Source: Escherichia coli
Lineage (GTDB): Bacteria > Pseudomonadota > Gammaproteobacteria > Enterobacterales > Enterobacteriaceae
DNA length: 64,000 bases
Strand: one strand, 5' to 3'
Assembly: GCF_003991155.1 (NCBI RefSeq)
Contig: NZ_CP031293.1
Shown: piece by piece, positions 33,264 to 47,667 of the stretch
How the letters are laid out: each line of letters opens with the position of its first letter
How positions within the stretch are numbered: position 1 is the stretch's first letter
Notes under the pieces: model-generated
What the model was told of the DNA's origin: nothing
Seen by the model: the letters and a program-made list of their open reading frames with translations, nothing else
The model's database searches: none
Program-made: the position numbers and the translations under genes

Positions 33264-35006
33264 ATGATAAAACCGACGTTTTTACGCCGGGTGGCCATTG
33301 CTGCTCTGCTCTCAGGAAGTTGTTTTAGCGCCGCCGCCGCGCCTCCTGCGCCGCCCGTCTCGTATGGTGTGGAGGAAGATGTCTTCCACCCGGTACGCGC
33401 GAAACAGGGAATGGTAGCGTCTGTGGACGCCACTGCCACTCAGGTGGGGGTGGATATTCTCAAGGAGGGCGGGAATGCCGTTGATGCCGCCGTGGCGGTG
33501 GGCTACGCGCTGGCGGTAACGCATCCGCAGGCAGGGAATCTGGGCGGTGGTGGTTTTATGTTAATCCGCTCGAAAAATGGCAATACCACGGCTATCGATT
33601 TCCGCGAAATGGCACCCGCCAAAGCGACCCGCGATATGTTCCTCGATGATCAGGGCAACCCGGACAGCAAAAAATCACTCACTTCGCATCTGGCTTCCGG
33701 CACACCGGGTACGGTAGCAGGTTTCTCGCTGGCGCTGGATAAATACGGCACCATGCCGCTGAACAAAGTCGTGCAGCCCGCGTTTAAACTGGCACGCGAT
33801 GGTTTTATCGTTAACGACGCGCTGGCTGACGATCTCAAAACCTACGGTAGCGAAGTGTTGCCGAATCACGAAAACAGTAAAGCTATCTTCTGGAAAGAGG
33901 GCGAGCCGCTGAAAAAGGGCGACACGCTGGTGCAGGCGAACCTGGCAAAGAGCCTGGAGATGATTGCTGAAAACGGCCCGGACGAATTCTATAAAGGCAC
34001 GATTGCGGAACAGATCGCCCAGGAGATGCAGAAAAACGGTGGCTTGATCACTAAAGAAGATTTAGCAGCCTATAAAGCGGTCGAACGTACTCCGATAAGC
34101 GGCGATTATCGCGGGTATCAGGTTTACTCCATGCCACCGCCATCCTCCGGCGGGATCCATATCGTACAAATCCTCAATATTCTGGAAAACTTCGATATGA
34201 AGAAATACGGCTTTGGCAGCGCCGATGCGATGCAAATCATGGCAGAAGCGGAGAAATACGCCTACGCCGACCGCTCGGAATATCTTGGCGACCCGGATTT
34301 TGTCAAAGTACCGTGGCAGGCGCTGACCAATAAAGCCTATGCCAAATCTATTGCCGATCAAATTGATATCAATAAAGCGAAGCCATCCAGCGAAATTCGC
34401 CCCGGCAAGCTTGCGCCTTATGAGAGTAATCAAACTACCCATTACTCAGTGGTGGATAAAGACGGCAACGCGGTGGCGGTGACCTATACGCTGAACACCA
34501 CCTTCGGGACGGGCATTGTCGCGGGCGAGAGCGGTATTCTGCTTAATAACCAGATGGATGATTTCTCCGCCAAACCGGGCGTACCGAACGTTTACGGGCT
34601 GGTGGGCGGTGATGCCAACGCGGTTGGGCCGAACAAACGCCCGCTGTCGTCGATGTCACCAACCATTGTGGTGAAAGACGGTAAAACCTGGCTGGTTACC
34701 GGTAGCCCTGGCGGGAGTCGGATTATTACCACCGTGCTGCAAATGGTGGTGAATAGCATCGATTATGGCATGAATGTCGCCGAAGCGACCAATGCACCGC
34801 GTTTCCACCATCAGTGGTTGCCGGACGAGCTGCGTGTCGAAAAAGGGTTTAGCCCGGATACGCTCAAGCTGCTGGAAGCAAAAGGTCAGAAAGTGGCGCT
34901 GAAAGAGGCGATGGGCAGTACACAAAGCATTATGGTTGGGCCGGACGGTGAGTTGTACGGCGCATCTGACCCGCGCTCGGTGGATGATTTAACGGCGGGG
35001 TATTAA
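33264..35006 (+). CDS. ggt: Gamma-glutamyltranspeptidase
   Basis: ORF track 33237..35006; start moved to MIKPTFLRR giving 580 aa; signal peptide; autoprocessing Thr region (...QTTHYSV...). Confidence 0.95.
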   Translation: MIKPTFLRRVAIAALLSGSCFSAAAAPPAPPVSYGVEEDVFHPVRAKQGMVASVDATATQVGVDILKEGGNAVDAAVAVGYALAVTHPQAGNLGGGGFMLIRSKNGNTTAIDFREMAPAKATRDMFLDDQGNPDSKKSLTSHLASGTPGTVAGFSLALDKYGTMPLNKVVQPAFKLARDGFIVNDALADDLKTYGSEVLPNHENSKAIFWKEGEPLKKGDTLVQANLAKSLEMIAENGPDEFYKGTIAEQIAQEMQKNGGLITKEDLAAYKAVERTPISGDYRGYQVYSMPPPSSGGIHIVQILNILENFDMKKYGFGSADAMQIMAEAEKYAYADRSEYLGDPDFVKVPWQALTNKAYAKSIADQIDINKAKPSSEIRPGKLAPYESNQTTHYSVVDKDGNAVAVTYTLNTTFGTGIVAGESGILLNNQMDDFSAKPGVPNVYGLVGGDANAVGPNKRPLSSMSPTIVVKDGKTWLVTGSPGGSRIITTVLQMVVNSIDYGMNVAEATNAPRFHHQWLPDELRVEKGFSPDTLKLLEAKGQKVALKEAMGSTQSIMVGPDGELYGASDPRSVDDLTAGY

Positions 35007-35011
35007 GGTTA

Positions 35012-35040
35012 GCGGCCCTCTTAGTGGGAAGAGGGCCGTA
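35012..35040. terminator. Bidirectional hairpin between ggt and yrhB frame
   Basis: cggccctctt ... aagagggccg inverted repeat read from sequence. Confidence 0.5.
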
Positions 35041-35043
35041 TTG

Positions 35044-35328
35044 TCAGGGCAAGCCGAAGGTAGCCTTTTTTATTTCATAATCCTGTAGATATTCTTCCAG
35101 TGGCTTTGCCGTTCCCAGAGAATGAATTTCACCACTGCCTTTATCAATAATAAAAGGTGCGTTACCAGCTAAGCGCGCGGCCTCATCTCCAGATTCAAGA
35201 AATTATTGTGATTCGAAACAGAAATACCAGCCCTGGCTAAAACGTCCATGCAGAGTGATGACGACAGGGAGATCTGCATCATCAAGGTAATGGTTCGCTT
35301 TCGCGAATGCGTCGTGATAAGTAATCAT
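35044..35328 (-). pseudogene. yrhB: yrhB-like reading frame interrupted by in-frame TAA (41 aa N-terminal part plus 52 aa continuing frame)
   Basis: Hand translation of minus strand: MITYHDAFAKANHYLDDADLPVVITLHGRFSQGWYFCFESQ-stop(35203..35205)-FLESGDEAARLAGNAPFIIDKGSGEIHSLGTAKPLEEYLQDYEIKKATFGLP-stop(35044..35046). The continuous 94-codon frame matches my recollection of the length of K-12 YrhB. Confidence 0.55.
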
Positions 35329-35777
35329 AATTATAATAAATATTATTGTTGATCGTTATATTATTATTCTTGCGTTATACTTTGAGAAAAGACGCGTTCA
35401 TCTTCGTCAAAGATATTATTAAATGCTGGTTTTGAAAAAAGTTCATCGGGTAATATACAGTCACGAAATAAGTATCTGCTAATGTTTTGTGATTTCTTTT
35501 TCAGAACGTCGAACGGGATTTTCTTATTTAAGATATCAGAATCTTATGATTCGGGTGAAATTCTAACTAAATCAACATGTCACTAAAATCATCATAGCCA
35601 TTAGCTATTTCGGCTAAAATAGAGATTACATGTCTTCGGTCCATCTCACTTAAGGAGTGTAGTTCCGTTGTAAGTTTTTCCATAGCTTGCATTGCTAAGT
35701 TTCGAACAAGGAATTTTCTGCTGGTAATCTCTAAAAAGATGGCATGGTTTATAATGATTTTTGTTACCTTTTGATTA

Positions 35778-36272
35778 TTATGAACAACTGTCCATGATTT
35801 CGTTTAAGAATGAAGAGAAATCACTAAACGAACTGAATATATTTTCTGTGCCAATATTATCTCTAATTTCAAAAAAGTTATTTTTAATGTCATAAGTAAA
35901 TATTGAAATGCTATCATCCCCGATCACTAACCGTTCTTGTAGATCAGGGTTTATGAAATCATCATTATTTCTATAAAATTCATTTACGGCAAAAAGGTTT
36001 TTAACTGAAGGTTCTGGAATCGAGAGGCTGAATAATCGTAATCCATTAACTTCGAATCCATCCATTGCTCTTAAAAAAGTAAGATAATCAGGTTGATTAT
36101 TAAAGAGAATACTAACTTCATTACATAACTTCTCCAGGCAATTAGTTGGATTAGAATTAAATTTTATTTGGATTATACTTTCAATAAATGATTCCTTGAG
36201 CGGTGCTTCAAATGGATAGTCTAAATCATTCATCATTTTTTTTAATTTATTTATTTGGGTTTTAGTCATCAT
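35778..36272 (-). CDS. Putative immunity protein for the upstream Hcp-HNH effector (yrhA-type position)
   Basis: ORF track 164 aa, AT-rich, start overlaps effector stop (ATGA); position immediately downstream of a polymorphic toxin gene. No catalytic motif recognised. Confidence 0.55.
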   Translation of the reverse strand: MMTKTQINKLKKMMNDLDYPFEAPLKESFIESIIQIKFNSNPTNCLEKLCNEVSILFNNQPDYLTFLRAMDGFEVNGLRLFSLSIPEPSVKNLFAVNEFYRNNDDFINPDLQERLVIGDDSISIFTYDIKNNFFEIRDNIGTENIFSSFSDFSSFLNEIMDSCS

Positions 36273-37447
36273 TTTGTGGGTTCCATAATATTTTTCATGG
36301 GAGGATAAATTGAGCCAGATGGAATGGCCCAGGGAGTGATTTTGCTTTCACCTACTAATATTCCCTTAGCTATTCGTGATTGCATGTTAGTAAAAACTTT
36401 ATGATATGGTTCGTTTTCGATTAATACTAAATTTTCGAAATCATTAGTACCACCATCATCTAGAGATAGTTTATGGTGAACATTATAATTTAGAGGAACA
36501 TTGCCCTTTCTCATTCTTAAAAGGTCTTCGGCGTTGAATCTTCCAGATGCTTCGGAGGTTTTTGCAAGTTTGATAAGAAAATTTTTTCTTACAGTTTTAT
36601 TAAACTCCTTTCGTAAGTTAGCTAAGTCTTTTGAAGGTCTCTTAATGTATATTATTTCTATTATGTCTATACCATCAAGAAGTTTTTGTTGACCTCTAAG
36701 TTTGCCTAAGTAACTATTTATTTCTGTATATGTATCAACATTAGAACGCTTTGTTAAAAGAATAGATGCTGTTGCTATCGCTATGCCCGCTGTTTTTTCA
36801 TTTAGTATTTGATCATAGCCTTTTATTGCATCTCCACCCAGTTTTTCCGCAGTATCTCTGAATCCTTCAATGTTCCCATTGTATACGCCACCAGCAGCAA
36901 GTAGCCTGCCAATAGCTTTGCTGTTTAACGTTTTGAAACGATTATTTGTTTGGTTTTTTGAATTTGGTAAAAACAAACAGTTATAATTTTCAGGGAGTGC
37001 CAAATAGCTGAACTCGGTATTTGCGATAATCTGTTGACAGAGGATAAATTCATAACTAACAGTTATTGTTTCTGTATCCAGTTGATTTTCAATGATCTGA
37101 TGATGAATAGCCGATAAAAAAGCGCCTCTTAGTTGTATATAATAATACTTTTCCCATCTACCAAATCTATTTATTCGATAGAAGTCAAATCCCATAAATA
37201 ATTGTTCATTATTGTTAATGGAATTAATAAATAATGGAGTGCTTTTATCAATTAATTTACAAAATGTTATACCATGGAACTGTGAACCAAGCCCCGTATT
37301 AGTAATACTATTTAAGAGTGAGAATGTAAATATTTCATCCTCATGCCCGCTCTGCCAGCGATTACCTGTAGACTCAGAAGTCCCACAACCTGCGGAGATG
37401 CTTCCTTGTTGTTCTCCCGTTACTGTCAGGTAAACAATATTACTCAT
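36269..37447 (-). CDS. yhhZ: Hcp-domain protein with C-terminal HNH-type nuclease toxin domain (Hcp-ET type, yhhZ)
   Basis: ORF track 392 aa. N-terminus MSNIVYLTVTGEQQGSISAGCGTSESTGNRW...GHEDEI matches the Hcp fold signature; C-terminus NYNVHHKLSLDDGGTNDFENLVLIENEPYHKVF carries an HNH-like motif. Confidence 0.82.
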   Translation of the reverse strand: MSNIVYLTVTGEQQGSISAGCGTSESTGNRWQSGHEDEIFTFSLLNSITNTGLGSQFHGITFCKLIDKSTPLFINSINNNEQLFMGFDFYRINRFGRWEKYYYIQLRGAFLSAIHHQIIENQLDTETITVSYEFILCQQIIANTEFSYLALPENYNCLFLPNSKNQTNNRFKTLNSKAIGRLLAAGGVYNGNIEGFRDTAEKLGGDAIKGYDQILNEKTAGIAIATASILLTKRSNVDTYTEINSYLGKLRGQQKLLDGIDIIEIIYIKRPSKDLANLRKEFNKTVRKNFLIKLAKTSEASGRFNAEDLLRMRKGNVPLNYNVHHKLSLDDGGTNDFENLVLIENEPYHKVFTNMQSRIAKGILVGESKITPWAIPSGSIYPPMKNIMEPTK

Positions 37448-37682
37448 CCCTGAAAAGTCCTTTTATGGCATGCTATTTTATTAATGGCACTATTATGCTT
37501 GTTAATTGTTATTTATTTACTCCAGGAAATTGTAGGCGTATATATTAATAATAAAATATTACACTTTAGGACGTAATTATGAGGTAAATCTCAATATATT
37601 TATTGGGCAAATAAATACATTAAAGGAAGATATGCCGATTTTGAATGACGCCCTTTTTCCATCTCAGAAAAAGGGCACTATC

Positions 37683-42249: not shown

Positions 42250-43590
42250 GTGACTACATTAACGCTTGTTTTAACAGCAGTAGGGTCTGTTTTACTGCTG
42301 CTGTTTTTAGTCATGAAGGCGCGTATGCACGCTTTCCTGGCTTTGATGGTGGTGTCCATGGGGGCTGGCCTTTTTTCCGGTATGCCGCTCGATAAAATCG
42401 CAGCGACGATGGAAAAAGGGATGGGAGGCACCCTCGGCTTTCTGGCGGTGGTTGTCGCCCTGGGAGCCATGTTTGGCAAGATCTTACATGAAACCGGCGC
42501 AGTCGATCAGATTGCCGTCAAAATGCTCAAATCCTTCGGTCACAGCCGCGCGCATTATGCCATCGGCCTTGCGGGGCTGGTCTGTGCGCTACCGCTGTTC
42601 TTTGAAGTGGCGATTGTTCTGCTGATTAGCGTTGCTTTCTCAATGGCGCGCCACACCGGTACGAACCTGGTGAAGCTGGTAATCCCATTATTCGCAGGCG
42701 TGGCGGCCGCGGCTGCGTTCCTGGTGCCTGGACCAGCGCCAATGCTGCTGGCATCGCAGATGAACGCCGACTTTGGCTGGATGATCCTGATTGGCCTGTG
42801 TGCGGCAATTCCGGGAATGATTATTGCCGGGCCGCTGTGGGGTAATTTCATCAGCCGCTACGTGGAGCTGCATATTCCTGACGACATCAGCGAACCACAT
42901 CTCGGTGAAGGCAAAATGCCGTCCTTCGGATTCAGCCTGTCGCTGATCCTGTTGCCACTGGTGCTGGTGGGGCTGAAAACCATTGCCGCGCGTTTTGTGC
43001 CAGAAGGCTCTACCGCTTACGAATGGTTCGAGTTTATCGGCCATCCGTTTACCGCGATTCTGGTTGCTTGTCTGGTAGCAATTTATGGCCTGGCAATGCG
43101 TCAGGGTATGCCAAAAGACAAAGTGATGGAGATTTGTGGTCACGCGCTGCAACCGGCGGGGATCATTCTGCTGGTGATTGGTGCAGGCGGCGTGTTCAAA
43201 CAGGTGCTGGTTGACTCTGGTGTCGGTCCGGCACTGGGCGAAGCGTTAACCGGCATGGGCCTGCCGATTGCCATCACCTGCTTCGTGCTGGCAGCTGCAG
43301 TGCGCATCATTCAGGGTTCTGCCACTGTTGCCTGTTTAACGGCGGTGGGACTGGTAATGCCGGTCATTGAACAACTGAACTACTCCGGTGCGCAAATGGC
43401 GGCGCTGTCGATTTGTATCGCCGGTGGTTCGATTGTTGTCAGCCACGTTAACGACGCGGGTTTCTGGTTGTTCGGTAAATTTACCGGCGCGACCGAAGCC
43501 GAAACGCTTAAAACCTGGACCATGATGGAAACCATCCTCGGCACTGTTGGTGCCATCGTTGGGATGATTGCGTTCCAGCTGTTGAGTTAA
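42250..43590 (+). CDS. gntU: Low-affinity gluconate transporter GntU (GTG start)
   Basis: ORF track 446 aa GntP-family permease. Confidence 0.9.
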   Translation: MTTLTLVLTAVGSVLLLLFLVMKARMHAFLALMVVSMGAGLFSGMPLDKIAATMEKGMGGTLGFLAVVVALGAMFGKILHETGAVDQIAVKMLKSFGHSRAHYAIGLAGLVCALPLFFEVAIVLLISVAFSMARHTGTNLVKLVIPLFAGVAAAAAFLVPGPAPMLLASQMNADFGWMILIGLCAAIPGMIIAGPLWGNFISRYVELHIPDDISEPHLGEGKMPSFGFSLSLILLPLVLVGLKTIAARFVPEGSTAYEWFEFIGHPFTAILVACLVAIYGLAMRQGMPKDKVMEICGHALQPAGIILLVIGAGGVFKQVLVDSGVGPALGEALTGMGLPIAITCFVLAAAVRIIQGSATVACLTAVGLVMPVIEQLNYSGAQMAALSICIAGGSIVVSHVNDAGFWLFGKFTGATEAETLKTWTMMETILGTVGAIVGMIAFQLLS

Positions 43591-43601
43591 TTACTGCGAC
43601 A

Positions 43602-43640
43602 AATTACTGCGAGCTTGCTCGCAGTAATTCATTTCTCTTA
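43602..43640 (+). terminator. Palindromic terminator after gntU
   Basis: aattactgcgagc-ttg-ctcgcagtaatt perfect palindrome followed by T-rich tract. Confidence 0.55.
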
Positions 43641-43729
43641 TCTCCTCTCTTCATCTTTTTGATCTCTCTCGCAAATTTACCTGCTAATAATCCGTTCTAA
43701 TCACTGCCTAAAGATCGCAGGAGATAAAG

Positions 43730-45826
43730 ATGGAAAAGCACGGAGCTGAATTGCTTTTACAGCGGATGTTAGGAAATACCACCGCTACTTTCAGGGAAGG
43801 GCAATGGGAAGCCATAGATGCAGTGGTTAATCAGCGGCGAAAACTGCTGGTTGTACAGCGCACCGGCTGGGGGAAAAGTGCCGTGTACTTCATCGCCAGT
43901 AAAATCTTCCGCGATCGCGGCGCTGGCCCGACAATTATCATCTCTCCTTTGCTTGCCCTGATGCGTAACCAGGTTGCCGCCGCTGAACGGTTAGGTATTA
44001 CGGCTGAAACGTTGAATTCTACAAACAGGGAAGAATGGCAGCGCATTAGCGATAAGTTGCTGCAAGGTGAGGTCGATTGCTTGCTGGTTTCCCCGGAACG
44101 TTTGGCAAACCAGGACTTTATCGAAACGGTTTTATATCCTATAGCCGATCGTATTGGCTTGCTTGTGGTCGACGAGGCGCACTGCATCTCTGATTGGGGC
44201 CACGATTTTCGCCCGGATTACCGACGTATATTAGATATTTTGCGCCAACTGCCTGCGAATACCCCTGTTCTGGGTACAACCGCGACAGCGAATAACCGTG
44301 TTGTTGAGGATATCCGTCAGCAATTGGGTGACATTGTGATTCAGCGTGGAACGCTGGCTCGCGAAAGTTTGGCGCTTGATGCCTTAGTCTTAGGAGAACA
44401 GTCATCCCGTCTGGCATGGTTAGCAACGGTTATCCCTCAGTTTTCCAAATCGGGAATTGTTTATACCCTGACGACTCGCGATGCTGAACTTGTCGCCGAG
44501 TGGTTAAGGAAAAATGGTATCAGTGCATTTGCTTACTACAGCGGCGTGACTTGTGAAGGCGCGGAAGATTCTAATACTGCCAGGGAATATCTGGAGCAGG
44601 CACTGCTGGCAAATAAAATCAAAGTGCTGGTCGCGACGACGGCATTAGGTATGGGGTTTGATAAACCTGATTTAGGTTTCGTCATTCATTATCAGATGCC
44701 GGGGTCTATTGTCGGTTACTACCAACAGGTGGGGCGTGCCGGGCGTGCTATAGATTCCGCAGTTGGCATATTGCTTTGTGGTGGTGAAGACCGCGCTATT
44801 CATCAATTCTTCCGTGAAAGCGCCTTTCCTGCGGAGGCGCAAATTCATGAAATACTCAACGTACTTAGCGAGAATGACGGTCTTACCCTACGAGGCATTG
44901 AACAACGGACGAATCTTCGTTATGGGCAAATAGAAAAAGCACTGAAATTATTGGTAGCGGAAAATCCATCGCCTGTGGTGTATACCGAGAAATTATGGCG
45001 CAGAACTATCGTCAGTTTTTCTCCTGATCATGAACGAATTAACCATTTGATGAATCAGAGAAAAAGTGAGCTGGCAGACGTTGAAAGCTATATCACGACC
45101 AAGGAGTGCAAAATGCAATTTCTGCGCCGTGCACTCGATGAGCCAAGTGCCGAACGTTGTGGTAAATGTAGCAGTTGTCTTCAACATCCGTTATTGTCGC
45201 CCGACATTGATAGCGGCTTACTCCATGCGGCAAATTTATTTATTAAACACGCTGACCTGCCGTTAAATCTCAATAAACAGGTGGCAGCTGGGGCTTTTAC
45301 GCAATACGGATTTAAAGGGAACTTGCCTGCGGGTTTACAAGGATCTACGGGGCGAATCCTTTCTCGTTGGGGAGATTCCGGGTGGGGAAAGCAGGTAGCA
45401 CAGGAGAAAAAAACGGGGCGCTTAAGTGATGAGCTGGTAGAAGCATGTGCGGAAATGGTTTGCCAACGCTGGAATCCGCATCCTGAACCAACCTGGGTAT
45501 GCTGCGTTCCTTCATTAAGGCACCTCGACCTGGTTCCTGATTTTGCCCGGCGACTGGCGGCGAAACTTGGCTTACCTTTTATTGATGCCATTGAAAAAGT
45601 CGTGGACAATCCACCGCAGAAAATGCAGCAAAACCGTTTTCACCAGTGTCAAAATCTCGACGGGGCGTTTGTGATTACCCCTCCTTTGATGCCAGGTCCG
45701 GCGTTGCTGGTTGACGATATCGTGGATTCTGCATGGACGCTGACAGTTCTGACAGCACTGTTACGCAAGGCAGGTTGCCCGACGGTTTATCCTCTTGCCC
45801 TTGCTTCTACCTCGGTAAAAAATTGA
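43730..45826 (+). CDS. RecQ-family SF2 helicase fused to Cys-cluster and C-terminal ComFC-like phosphoribosyltransferase-type domain
   Basis: ORF track 698 aa. Walker A QRTGWGKS, DEAH box VVDEAHCISDWGHDFRPDY (RecQ-type), TATA motif, motif VI QQVGRAGRA, Cys cluster CGKCSSC, C-terminal PRT-like loop ALLVDDIVDSAWT preceded by ComF-like segment. By my recollection not present at this position in K-12. Confidence 0.8.
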   Translation: MEKHGAELLLQRMLGNTTATFREGQWEAIDAVVNQRRKLLVVQRTGWGKSAVYFIASKIFRDRGAGPTIIISPLLALMRNQVAAAERLGITAETLNSTNREEWQRISDKLLQGEVDCLLVSPERLANQDFIETVLYPIADRIGLLVVDEAHCISDWGHDFRPDYRRILDILRQLPANTPVLGTTATANNRVVEDIRQQLGDIVIQRGTLARESLALDALVLGEQSSRLAWLATVIPQFSKSGIVYTLTTRDAELVAEWLRKNGISAFAYYSGVTCEGAEDSNTAREYLEQALLANKIKVLVATTALGMGFDKPDLGFVIHYQMPGSIVGYYQQVGRAGRAIDSAVGILLCGGEDRAIHQFFRESAFPAEAQIHEILNVLSENDGLTLRGIEQRTNLRYGQIEKALKLLVAENPSPVVYTEKLWRRTIVSFSPDHERINHLMNQRKSELADVESYITTKECKMQFLRRALDEPSAERCGKCSSCLQHPLLSPDIDSGLLHAANLFIKHADLPLNLNKQVAAGAFTQYGFKGNLPAGLQGSTGRILSRWGDSGWGKQVAQEKKTGRLSDELVEACAEMVCQRWNPHPEPTWVCCVPSLRHLDLVPDFARRLAAKLGLPFIDAIEKVVDNPPQKMQQNRFHQCQNLDGAFVITPPLMPGPALLVDDIVDSAWTLTVLTALLRKAGCPTVYPLALASTSVKN

Positions 45827-47028
45827 TGAATCTTTCAGCCAATGCACAAGCGACCCTCCTGCTAACCAGCGATTTTTCTCGCGCGGCGGCGAGTGAGTAT
45901 AAACCTCTTAGTAATAGTGAATGGGGGAAGTTTGCATTATGGCTGAAGCACCAACGTATCAGTCCCGCCGATCTTCTGGTGCCGCAACCGCAAGAGAAAC
46001 TTACAGGCTGGAGCGATCCGCGTATTTCTCAGGAGCGTATTCTTGGCTTGCTGGCGCGTGGCCATAGTCTGGCGTTGGCGGTAGATAAGTGGCAACGCGC
46101 CGGTTTATGGATCTTAACCCGCGGAGATGCCGATTATCCCGTTCGCTTGAAAAACCGATTGCGAACGGATGCACCTCCCGTTTTATTTGGCTGCGGGAAT
46201 AAAGCATTACTGCAAGCGGAAGGTATGGCGATTGTTGGCTCGCGAGATGCTCCGACTGCCGATTTGCGCTATACCCAACAACTGGCAGCGAAACTGGCCC
46301 AACAGGGGATTTGCGTTATCTCTGGTGGTGCGCGAGGTATTGATGAATGTGCAATGGCGTCGGCACTGGAGGCCGGGGGAACTGCCGTTGGCGTATTAGC
46401 TGATAGCTTGTTAAAAACGAGTACGTTAGTGAAATGGCGTGAAGGGCTTATAGCAGGCAACCTGGTGTTGATTTCGCCGTTTTACCCAGAGGTACGTTTC
46501 ACCGTCGGCAATGCGATGGCGCGAAATAAATATATTTATTGCCTTGCTGAAAGCGCAATGGTTGTACGTGCGGGAATGACCGGTGGAACGATAACCGGAG
46601 CGATGGAGGCGTTAAAACATCAGTGGCTGCCTGTGCAGGTTAAACCAAATCAGGATGTGCAATCAGCCAATTCACGATTAGTAGAAAATGGGGCGTCATG
46701 GAGTGCTGAACAGGCTGAGAATGTGACGATCAGACTGCCAGACGTTCCTGGGCTGATGTATGACAGAGCACTCCGTAACGCTCAACCAGAATTGTTTTCG
46801 CTGCACGAAGATGACGCAAATTACGCAGTGATGCCCTCGCATACCCCTGTCGATTTTTATCAACTTTTTGTGGCGGAACTGGCGATCCTTGCAAAGGAAT
46901 CGATAAGTATTGAAAGGCTGGCGTCTTGTACTGGTTTAACCATCGAACAAATTAGTGTGTGGCTGAACCGCGCAGAAGAAGAGGGAAGGGTTATCCGATT
47001 GGGCGAAGGTCATTATCAGTTCAGGTAA
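45826..47028 (+). CDS. DprA/Smf-family (SLOG superfamily) protein, paralog of housekeeping DprA
   Basis: ORF track 45733..47028; likely start ATG 45826 overlapping the helicase stop as TGATG (400 aa). Rossmann-type DprA core AIVGSRDAPTADLRYTQQLAAKLAQQGICVISGGARGIDECAMASALEAGG, N-terminal SAM-like region, C-terminal winged-helix-like tail. Confidence 0.8.
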   Translation: MNLSANAQATLLLTSDFSRAAASEYKPLSNSEWGKFALWLKHQRISPADLLVPQPQEKLTGWSDPRISQERILGLLARGHSLALAVDKWQRAGLWILTRGDADYPVRLKNRLRTDAPPVLFGCGNKALLQAEGMAIVGSRDAPTADLRYTQQLAAKLAQQGICVISGGARGIDECAMASALEAGGTAVGVLADSLLKTSTLVKWREGLIAGNLVLISPFYPEVRFTVGNAMARNKYIYCLAESAMVVRAGMTGGTITGAMEALKHQWLPVQVKPNQDVQSANSRLVENGASWSAEQAENVTIRLPDVPGLMYDRALRNAQPELFSLHEDDANYAVMPSHTPVDFYQLFVAELAILAKESISIERLASCTGLTIEQISVWLNRAEEEGRVIRLGEGHYQFR

Positions 47029-47031
47029 TAA

Positions 47032-47067
47032 AACAGGTGCCGCCTCTGGTTGTGTGCAGCACCTGTT
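47032..47067. terminator. Bidirectional hairpin between DprA-like gene and yhgN
   Basis: aacaggtgccgc ... gcagcacctgtt stem (11 of 12 paired) read from sequence. Confidence 0.5.
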
Positions 47068-47073
47068 TGAACC

Positions 47074-47667
47074 TTACCCTTTCATCCACATTCGAATGCC
47101 GTCGAGGAACATCTGGGTTGCCATCATCACCAGAATCAATCCCATCAGGCGTTCAAGTGCATTCACCCCTTTCTCGCCCAGCAGACGTAAAAATAGCGAA
47201 GACTGTAGCAGGATAACAAAGGTGCCACCCCAGGCCAGCAGCAGAGCAATTACCAGATGTCCCATCTGATTCGGGTACTGATGAGACAACAACATCAGCG
47301 TGGCGAGAATAGTCGGCCCGGCGACTAACGGAATTGCCAACGGCACGATAAACGGCTCTTCACCTGCCGGAAGCCCGCTGCTATTTCCTGAAGCGCTGGG
47401 GAAAATCATCTTAATGGCGATCAGAAACAGAATGATGCCGCCAGAAATGGAGACGGTTTCTGCTCGCAGGCTGAGAAATGCCAGAATTTTCTCACCCGCA
47501 AACAGGAACACCAGCATCACCAGGAGAGCAATAAGCAACTCCCGCACCATGATTGCCCGCCGTCTTTTCGGTTCAGTATGTTTCAGTACGGACATGAAAA
47601 TAGGTAGGTTTCCGAGCGGATCCATAATCAGGATCAATAAAACTGCTGCAGAAATGATTTCATTCAT
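47074..47667 (-). CDS. yhgN: MarC-family inner membrane protein YhgN
   Basis: ORF track 197 aa polytopic membrane protein; synteny next to asd. Confidence 0.9.
   Translation of the reverse strand: MNEIISAAVLLILIMDPLGNLPIFMSVLKHTEPKRRRAIMVRELLIALLVMLVFLFAGEKILAFLSLRAETVSISGGIILFLIAIKMIFPSASGNSSGLPAGEEPFIVPLAIPLVAGPTILATLMLLSHQYPNQMGHLVIALLLAWGGTFVILLQSSLFLRLLGEKGVNALERLMGLILVMMATQMFLDGIRMWMKG

Follow-up and report, generated by a model that had tools for sequence, protein, structure and literature searches.

An Escherichia coli helicase–phosphoribosyltransferase gene and its overlapping DprA-like partner very probably represent the known toxin–antitoxin-type module RqlHI (PsyrTA)

Introduction

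Which system is encoded by two overlapping genes of Escherichia coli, the first specifying a RecQ-type helicase fused to a phosphoribosyltransferase (PRTase) domain and the second a DprA-type protein? A preliminary description, made from a stretch of 64,000 nucleotides (the window), had regarded this helicase-fused architecture as undescribed. With high confidence we assign the locus to E. coli rqlH-rqlI (PsyrTA), a toxin–antitoxin-type two-gene module on a small accessory segment that separates gntU from yhgN. The pair is already published and contained in catalogues of anti-phage defence, and is no new system. RqlH and RqlI were described together with their operon structure in the ExPEC strain F11 (Russell & Mulvey 2015, PMC4670107), and the same pair is the PsyrTA of Sberro 2013 and Millman 2022.

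Results and Discussion

Gene 1 (rqlH/psyrT, the toxin component; 43730..45826, plus strand, 698 aa) is preceded by a Shine-Dalgarno-like AGGAG (43719..43723, plus strand), read from the sequence 6 nt before the ATG. In the protein, a RecQ-like SF2 helicase is followed by a zinc motif and, at the C-terminus, by a PRTase domain, an architecture of about 699 aa that is widespread. The PADLOC model for PsyrT covers it nearly completely (E=0, 1061.7 bits, aa 3–697 corresponding to positions 5–687 of 689), the NCBIfam subfamily recQ_fam is matched with 252.8 bits above a cutoff of 219.8, and PGAP names the product 'RecQ family ATP-dependent DNA helicase'. The helicase core (aa 20–347; 43787..44770, plus strand) is defined by Pfam DEAD (4.9e-25) and Helicase_C (4.2e-13) as well as by a sequence match of aa 4–347 to E. 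coli RecQ in the PDB (1oyw, 2.1e-53). It contains TGWGKS at aa 45 (Walker A, K49), DEAH at aa 148 (D148) and QQVGRAGRA at aa 332 (motif VI). Four cysteines spaced Cys460-X16-Cys477-X2-Cys480-X2-Cys483 form a RecQ-type zinc-binding motif (45107..45178, plus strand), for which the Pfam match to RecQ_Zn_bind is marginal (aa 443–484, E=1.4e-3). These matches bear out the RecQ-type helicase with a Cys cluster that had been proposed earlier.

Helicase core and zinc-binding Cys motif are shared with canonical RecQ, which also provides the nearest solved structures (2e-53). Assignment as canonical RecQ was rejected, however: gene 1 scores 296.3 bits where TIGR01389 demands 640.2, and 225.5 where NF008279 demands 1015. 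The NCBIfam recQ model leaves gene 1 unmatched past approximately aa 365 and RecQ structures align with aa 4–356 only; a PRTase domain is present in RqlH instead.

This type-I PRTase-fold domain comprises aa 500–698 (45227..45823, plus strand). For the single sequence, the Pfam match to Pribosyltran is marginal (3.9e-3), and the same model is found at E<=1e-3 in 25 of 41 family members. A profile built from these 41 sequences of the domain retrieved PRPP synthetases and PRTases from the PDB (best 1.1e-6), with 47 of the 48 matches being phosphoribosyltransferase or PRPP-synthetase entries. The AlphaFold2 model of the domain reached a pLDDT of 95.4. Used as a Foldseek query, it gave entries of the same two classes for 48 of the 50 top matches, the remaining two being chains of 7f06, the title of which states no function. 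H. pylori ComFC (7p0h) ranked second with the highest query TM-score (0.55 over 197 columns, 15% identity). As judged from this model, the domain is a ComFC-like PRTase fold and the similarity to 7p0h is one of fold only; profile, Pfam on homologues, AlphaFold2 and Foldseek agree here with the earlier proposal. Alignments to homologues and to the PRPP loop of PRPP synthetases locate the PRPP-binding-loop motif LLVDDIVDSAWT at aa 659–670 (45704..45739, plus strand), and D163, D164 and S168 of this loop (domain-alignment numbering) are invariant in the 41 homologues. The published mutants concern the same region: deletion of aa 509–690 abolished both toxicity and RqlI binding, and the F11 variants DIVD663EVME and D663A were non-toxic (PMC4670107).

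Gene 2 (rqlI/psyrA, the DprA-like antitoxin component; 45826..47028, plus strand, 400 aa) matches PADLOC PsyrA over its entire length (4.2e-202, aa 1–400 corresponding to positions 1–397 of 398). Its Rossmann-like DprA/SLOG domain (aa 89–292; 46090..46701, plus strand) is recognized by Pfam DNA_processg_A (2.2e-50, aa 89–292) and SLOG cluster4 (9.9e-11, aa 135–280), and sequence matches in the PDB comprise DprA (3maj, 4ljr) and the ShosA structures 9vzo and 8zva. The DprA-type character noticed earlier holds accordingly. Canonical DprA/Smf was rejected by 102.1 bits for TIGR00732 (cutoff 191.15) and 80.1 for NF008007 (cutoff 495). ShosA belongs to a sister family and not to the same family: the PADLOC ShosA models match at 7.1e-27 and 3.5e-8, far more weakly than PsyrA. 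A conserved C-terminal segment (approximately aa 345–400; 46858..47025, plus strand), delimited by a block in the homologue alignment, is a putative helix-turn-helix with a weak match to Pfam HTH_26 (E=0.35); according to truncation data it is dispensable for antitoxin activity (PMC4670107).

The two genes overlap as TGATG at 45824–45828, where the stop codon of gene 1 and the start codon of gene 2 have one base in common. The earlier reading of this junction is confirmed, and translational coupling from rqlH to rqlI is plausible. RefSeq/PGAP, which names the product 'DNA-processing protein DprA', places the start at an upstream ATG (45733), resulting in 431 aa and a 94-bp overlap. The 31 additional N-terminal residues show no conservation in homologues, and the published length of RqlI is 400 aa (PMC4670107). 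The same arrangement of toxin gene and DprA-like gene is also present in homologous loci: a pair from Alcaligenes, flanked by hsdS and hsdR within a type I R-M operon, and a pair on a metagenome contig both overlap by 4 bp.

Agreement with the published F11 pair extends to gene order, overlapping stop and start codons, the set of domains and both protein lengths (698 aa, 400 aa). As far as lengths and residue numbers can be matched, K49, D148, DIVD663 and RqlI 1–400 carry the published F11 numbering. The features of PsyrTA members are found here, namely a helicase–PRTase toxin of ~690–700 aa, an adjoining DprA-like gene on the same strand and the residues addressed by mutagenesis. The construct SG127 'PsyrTA' from E. 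coli STEC 1299 contains the same 3.5-kb gntU–yhgN insert (Millman 2022) and begins at window position 43590. Compared with those of the window, its proteins show allelic substitutions only, at 1 position in 143 and 6 positions in 232 (~1–3% of compared residues).

A PADLOC search, suggested earlier as a check, returned full-length matches to both PsyrT and PsyrA. With dedicated PADLOC models (PDLC03928/PDLC03927) and several papers on this very locus, a previously undescribed system is rejected with near certainty. The architecture believed to be novel is that of RqlH/RqlI (PMC4670107) and of the PsyrTA papers; the locus looked unannotated because the PGAP names are only generic. Taken together, the anatomy of the pair and the guess of a conflict system were sound and the claim of novelty was not.

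In K-12 MG1655 the core genes gntU and yhgN are separated by a spacer of 56 bp. BLAST of this empty site against the window shows homology up to the stop codon of gntU (43590) and again from 47074 onwards; an accessory segment of 3483 bp (43591..47073, without strand) stands in place of the spacer. Neither an integrase nor flanking direct repeats were seen for this segment. Among 5426 complete E. coli genomes, 1641 contain the full locus, each of them on the chromosome between gntU and yhgN; 70% lack it, K-12 included. Neighbours in the window are housekeeping genes (gntRKU, yhgN, asd and glg genes), and no defence island or mobile element was recognisable around rqlHI.

Directly 3' of gntU the terminator scan located a terminator-like hairpin (43602..43629, plus strand) with a 12-bp stem and a T-rich tail. 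Its position implies that rqlHI has its own candidate promoter within 43630–43718; the same scan gave no match to the sigma-70 consensus upstream of gene 1. At the other end rqlI and yhgN are convergent, and between them an inverted repeat, ACAGGTGC...GCACCTGT (47033..47066, without strand), was read from the sequence. It may be a terminator common to both genes; it was missed by the terminator scan, its loop being too long.

The published behaviour is that of a toxin and its antitoxin. RqlH, a RecQ-like 3'-5' helicase, is genotoxic on its own in F11 via the PRTase domain, and in this near-identical allele the effects comprise SOS induction, filamentation and a higher mutation rate (PMC4670107). 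Toxicity requires the aspartates of the PRPP loop, and the isolated PRTase domain is insufficient, other parts of RqlH being needed as well (PMC4670107). RqlI binds RqlH via the PRTase domain and neutralises its toxicity; co-immunoprecipitation is lost with RqlH 1–509 (PMC4670107).

The closest comparison is provided by ShosTA, likewise a two-gene, toxin–antitoxin-type anti-phage system of a PRTase-domain toxin and a DprA-like antitoxin (Kimelman 2012; Rousset 2022; Millman 2022). The preliminary description had guessed correctly at a conflict- or toxin-type system akin to a half-remembered DprA plus PRTase pair, which is ShosTA (Rousset 2022). Toxicity of ShosT requires PRPP binding and is accompanied by disturbed purine metabolism; no PRTase activity was obtained on four common purines. 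ShosA binds ssDNA and RecA. ShosT lacks a helicase, whereas gene 1 carries a full RecQ-like one, and PADLOC ShosT matched neither gene 1 nor its C-terminal domain alone. Furthermore, ShosA reportedly neutralises ShosT without binding it, while RqlI co-immunoprecipitates with RqlH, so that the analogy between ShosTA and RqlHI is imperfect.

PsyrTA from Bacillus sp. FJAT-29814 (SG128) was scored 'v' for phage protection, and PsyrTA of E. coli STEC 1299 (SG127) was scored 'x', with no phage defence observed (Millman 2022). The Millman preprint reports defence for PsyrTA, the construct with the score 'v' being the Bacillus one; attempts to transform a delta-psyrA construct failed there. Deletion or overexpression of PsyrTA in E. 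coli NILS69 left phage infectivity unchanged and caused a growth defect only. Both searches for anti-phage activity of an E. coli allele were therefore negative. The phage-panel challenge of the cloned pair that had been suggested earlier has already been performed in the form of the near-identical, negative STEC 1299 allele.

By analogy to ShosTA and Bacillus PsyrTA, the pair would most likely act as a latent abortive-infection or growth-arrest device. RqlI, made from the overlapping downstream gene, holds RqlH in check by binding to its PRTase domain. The helicase-tethered PRTase would be released by a disturbance, for which loss of RqlI, its titration by RecA filaments or foreign ssDNA, and arrest of host protein synthesis are candidates. 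Through a putative enzymatic activity, the latter could then consume or misuse PRPP and harm DNA replication.

Alternatively, RqlH could primarily be a RecQ paralogue of housekeeping type that serves DNA repair or recombination at damaged or stalled DNA. RqlI would then be its dedicated regulator, a DprA-like ssDNA/RecA mediator, and toxicity an artefact of imbalance. M. smegmatis RqlH, 41% identical to F11 RqlH over the full length (PMC4670107), has the same layout of RecQ-like helicase, zinc motif and C-terminal PRTase domain. It is a biochemically proven 3'-5' helicase (Ordonez, Unciuleac & Shuman 2012, via PMC4670107); its PRTase domain is dispensable for helicase activity, and the protein occurs without an RqlI partner, like most Gram-positive homologues. 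About 55% of the strains with an RqlH homologue, e.g. M. smegmatis and Streptomyces, have no RqlI (PMC4670107), a distribution easier to reconcile with an ordinary DNA-repair helicase than with a toxin. F11 delta-rqlI suffers DNA stress under low oxygen and lower host fitness (PMC4670107), ShosA promotes recombination and repair besides binding RecA, and the negative phage tests of the STEC 1299 and NILS69 alleles point in the same direction. Nevertheless, we consider a repair function unlikely: the locus is accessory and missing from most complete E. coli genomes, homologues are located within R-M operons, the Bacillus homologue protects against phages, and toxicity maps to the PRTase loop and not to helicase activity (PMC4670107).

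It is also conceivable, at low probability, that E. coli rqlHI is no phage-defence system and that the helicase carries the PRTase along ssDNA. The domain would then act on DNA directly, e.g. by phosphoribosylating bases that are exposed or damaged or by otherwise using PRPP on them, with RqlI gating it through sensing of ssDNA and RecA. Room is left for this idea because toxicity needs the PRPP loop together with other parts of RqlH and both E. coli defence assays were negative.

We give very little credence to a DNA-uptake or competence-like module, the alternative raised in the preliminary description, in which the fused protein would combine the roles of ComFA and ComFC and would import or process incoming ssDNA with a DprA paralogue. 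The same three kinds of domain do occur in ComFA, ComFC and DprA (GntX and Smf in E. coli for the latter two), a parallel that Iyer et al. 2017 have already drawn in print and that Russell & Mulvey also discuss (PMC4670107). Over its full length the PRTase-domain model is most similar to H. pylori ComFC, gene 2 has a DprA domain, and GntX is the best, though very weak, NCBIfam match of the domain alone. That match, however, reaches 15.8 bits against the cutoff of 304 (NF008616), so that the GntX/ComFC equivalog was rejected, and gene 2 stays below the dprA equivalog cutoff as given above. The helicase is of the RecQ family and not of the ComFA type, pilus or ComEC genes were not found nearby, and ExPEC isolates possess, in addition, a DprA nearer to the canonical one, which showed no detectable effect on transformation in K-12 (PMC4670107). 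Toxicity and its neutralisation are the sole demonstrated phenotypes.

Identification of gene 1 as DpdF of the Dpd 7-deazaguanine DNA-modification/restriction island is practically excluded: PADLOC DpdF models match at up to 1.2e-92 and two short 'DpdF' models match the PRTase domain, but the PsyrT model is much the stronger match (1062 bits, compared with 310), the NCBIfam equivalog NF041063 yields 149 bits where 550 are required, and the neighbourhood contains core genes only and none of dpdA–K.

Conclusion

Locus, architecture, toxin–antitoxin behaviour, catalogue listing and competence analogy of rqlHI have all been published, and the present identification has no discovery value. Generic RefSeq names conceal this known system, so that scans of raw sequence keep rediscovering it. 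Residual interest lies in the biochemistry of the helicase-tethered PRTase and in what triggers the E. coli allele, which is carried by ~30% of complete genomes and was negative in two phage assays. If the PRTase domain of RqlH did act on DNA, it would represent a new DNA-directed PRTase chemistry.

Identity and locus of the gene pair

Gene 1 (rqlH, 43730-45826, plus strand, 698 aa) and gene 2 (rqlI, ATG at 45826, end at 47028, 400 aa) are the published and already known pair RqlHI, also named PsyrTA. The preliminary description had presented them as an undescribed system; its anatomy and general category were right, whereas its novelty is refuted by full-length PADLOC matches, by the residue numbering of the ExPEC strain F11 and by near-identity to the cloned construct SG127. 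PADLOC already models the pair, with gene 1 matching the toxin component PsyrT over aa 3-697 (E=0, 1061.7 bits) and gene 2 the antitoxin component PsyrA over aa 1-400 (4.2e-202). The numbering of Russell and Mulvey 2015, who studied RqlHI in F11 (K49A, D148A, DIVD663, PRTase domain 509-690, RqlI 1-400), fits the window sequence exactly (PMC4670107). SG127 is given in Table S2 of Millman et al. as 'PsyrTA, Escherichia coli STEC 1299, 3485 bp'. Comparison with its printed start places the beginning of the cloned sequence at window 43590, and its proteins of 698 and 400 aa differ from those of the window at 1/143 and 6/232 comparable residues, respectively. PsyrTA and RqlHI are treated as one system in the Millman et al. 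preprint, and every testable defining feature of that system was found in the window pair. The locus seemed undescribed because the RefSeq names are generic, reading 'RecQ family ATP-dependent DNA helicase' and 'DNA-processing protein DprA' and nothing further. A study of defence islands across the E. coli pan-genome names PsyrTA and does not mention the gntU/yhgN site.

The pair lies on the E. coli chromosome in the order yhhY-yhhX-yhhW-gntR-gntK-gntU, gene 1, gene 2, yhgN-asd-glgB-glgX. A segment of 3483 bp (43591-47073) stands in place of the 56-bp spacer of K-12, and in comparison with K-12 neither an integrase nor repeats were found in it. Of 5426 complete E. coli genomes, 1641 carry the locus, chromosomal and flanked by gntU and yhgN in every case, and it is found with 100% identity in many sequenced strains.

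Both open reading frames and their TGATG overlap, in which the TGA of gene 1 and the ATG of gene 2 have one A in common, are as first described. An AGGAG can be read at 43719-43723 before gene 1. In RefSeq/PGAP gene 2 begins at an upstream ATG (45733), so that the product has 431 aa and the overlap with rqlH extends over 94 bp. This start is less likely, as initiation at 45826, with a product of 400 aa, agrees with the published RqlI and with the PADLOC PsyrA model; the 31 additional N-terminal residues (45733-45825) are unconserved in two homologues. In F11, rqlH and rqlI form one operon (PMC4670107). A strong terminator-like hairpin is located 3' of gntU (43602-43629), and a promoter scan of the ~90 bp 5' of rqlH (43630-43718) revealed no sigma-70 consensus promoter.

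Two further observations concern other parts of the window, with gene annotations taken from an E. coli strain that is 100% identical over 43400-47300. The stretch at ~35000-37500 is low in GC (34-35% vs ~52% around it). Its counterpart carries a yrhB pseudogene, a yrhD fragment, yrhA and tssD, the latter encoding 392 aa annotated as 'Hcp1 family type VI secretion system effector'; this looks like a C-terminally extended Hcp followed by a small gene. Coordinate transfer from the same strain places a HicA/HicB type II toxin-antitoxin pair at ~1-520, adjoining nikR, with hicA truncated by the window edge.

Domain architecture

All motifs quoted for gene 1 were found: TGWGKS at aa 45, DEAH at 148, QQVGRAGRA at 332 and CGKCSSC at 477, the last forming with C460 a RecQ-type zinc motif C-X16-C-X2-C-X2-C. 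Pfam assigns DEAD (4.9e-25) and Helicase_C (4.2e-13), with RecQ_Zn_bind (1.4e-3) and Pribosyltran (3.9e-3) as marginal calls. The nearest solved structures are RecQ helicases (2e-53, PDB). The protein clears an NCBIfam RecQ-family subfamily model (252.8 bits vs 219.8) and falls short of the equivalog for canonical RecQ (296 vs 640 bits). In two aligned Shigella sonnei homologues of 656-657 aa (P0002 and P0008) aa 134-175 are lost in frame and the DEAH box with them, which looks like a natural helicase-dead variant retaining the PRTase domain. Other S. sonnei homologues (P0009-P0013) are shorter, at 593-604 aa.

Since the Pribosyltran call was marginal, the phosphoribosyltransferase (PRTase) domain was tested separately. 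As a single sequence, the C-terminal 199 aa gave weak PRTase matches in phmmer against PDB (E=0.14) and sub-threshold matches in NCBIfam (GntX, E=0.007). Therefore, an alignment of 41 sequences was built from the 1636 relatives obtained in a search of 1.84 billion representatives. In this alignment D163, D164 and S168 of the PRPP-loop motif are invariant, and 25 of the 41 members match Pribosyltran at E<=1e-3. Its profile retrieved PRPP synthetases and PRTases from PDB (best E 1.1e-6), entries of these two kinds making up 47/48 matches. With the AlphaFold2 model of the domain (pLDDT 95.4), 48 of the best 50 Foldseek matches were likewise PRTase or PRPP-synthetase entries; H. pylori ComFC (7p0h) ranked second with the highest full-length TM-score (0.55). 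Because profile search, Pfam on the members, AlphaFold2 and Foldseek agree on a PRTase, the ComFC-like fold proposed earlier is supported.

Gene 2 is a DprA paralogue, as the preliminary description had it. It matches DNA_processg_A (2.2e-50), SLOG cluster 4, and DprA and ShosA structures in PDB, and it scores under the equivalog cutoff for canonical DprA (102 vs 191 bits).

Among related families, ShosTA, the sister system of a PRTase toxin (ShosT) and a DprA-like antitoxin (ShosA), has no helicase, and the window pair gave no ShosT match in PADLOC; ShosT structures were also not among the best 50 Foldseek matches of the PRTase-domain model. A ComFC/GntX assignment is not borne out by curated cutoffs and gene context, and the same evidence rules out DpdF, which the PADLOC match list had suggested. 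Two PADLOC models labelled 'DpdF', PDLC02869 and PDLC02866 (74 and 255 positions), match the PRTase domain at 45227-45823 with 5.5e-54 and 2.2e-14. Both appear to be pieces of PsyrT-like proteins and might get PsyrT mislabelled as DpdF. The analogy to ComFA/ComFC/DprA was drawn before by Russell and Mulvey (PMC4670107) and Iyer et al. 2017.

Function and proposed mechanism

In F11, RqlH without RqlI switches on the SOS response and causes filamentation and a higher mutation rate. Toxicity is gone after deletion of the PRTase domain or mutation of D663 or DIVD663, the PRTase domain by itself is insufficient, and helicase-dead K49A and D148A RqlH still cut the recovery of viable cells. RqlH and RqlI co-immunoprecipitate, an interaction absent with RqlH 1-509 (all PMC4670107). 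The RqlH of M. smegmatis, as cited in PMC4670107, unwinds DNA as a 3'-5' helicase. Attempts by Millman et al. at a delta-psyrA construct were unsuccessful.

PsyrTA is among the phage-resistance systems listed by Millman et al., the positive-scoring construct being that of Bacillus sp. FJAT-29814. Against a defence role of the window allele, SG127 showed no phage defence, deletion or overexpression of PsyrTA in E. coli NILS69 had no effect, and RqlI is absent from more than half of the strains in which an RqlH homologue occurs (PMC4670107). The window locus, too, is flanked by housekeeping genes outside any defence island. In Alcaligenes nematophilus (CP088159.1, locus L004, 1634-11743) a 66% identical psyrT-psyrA pair occurs in the order hsdM-hsdS-psyrT-psyrA-hsdR; such a setting, inside a type I R-M operon, is typical of defence genes.

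The working model for RqlHI rests on ShosTA. There, PRPP binding by ShosT is required for toxicity, and purine metabolism and replication are disturbed; ShosA is an unstable protein that binds ssDNA and RecA, and T7 gp0.7 triggers the system. By analogy, rqlHI probably acts as a latent device for growth arrest or abortive infection: once RqlI is lost or titrated away, the helicase-tethered PRTase would be unleashed.
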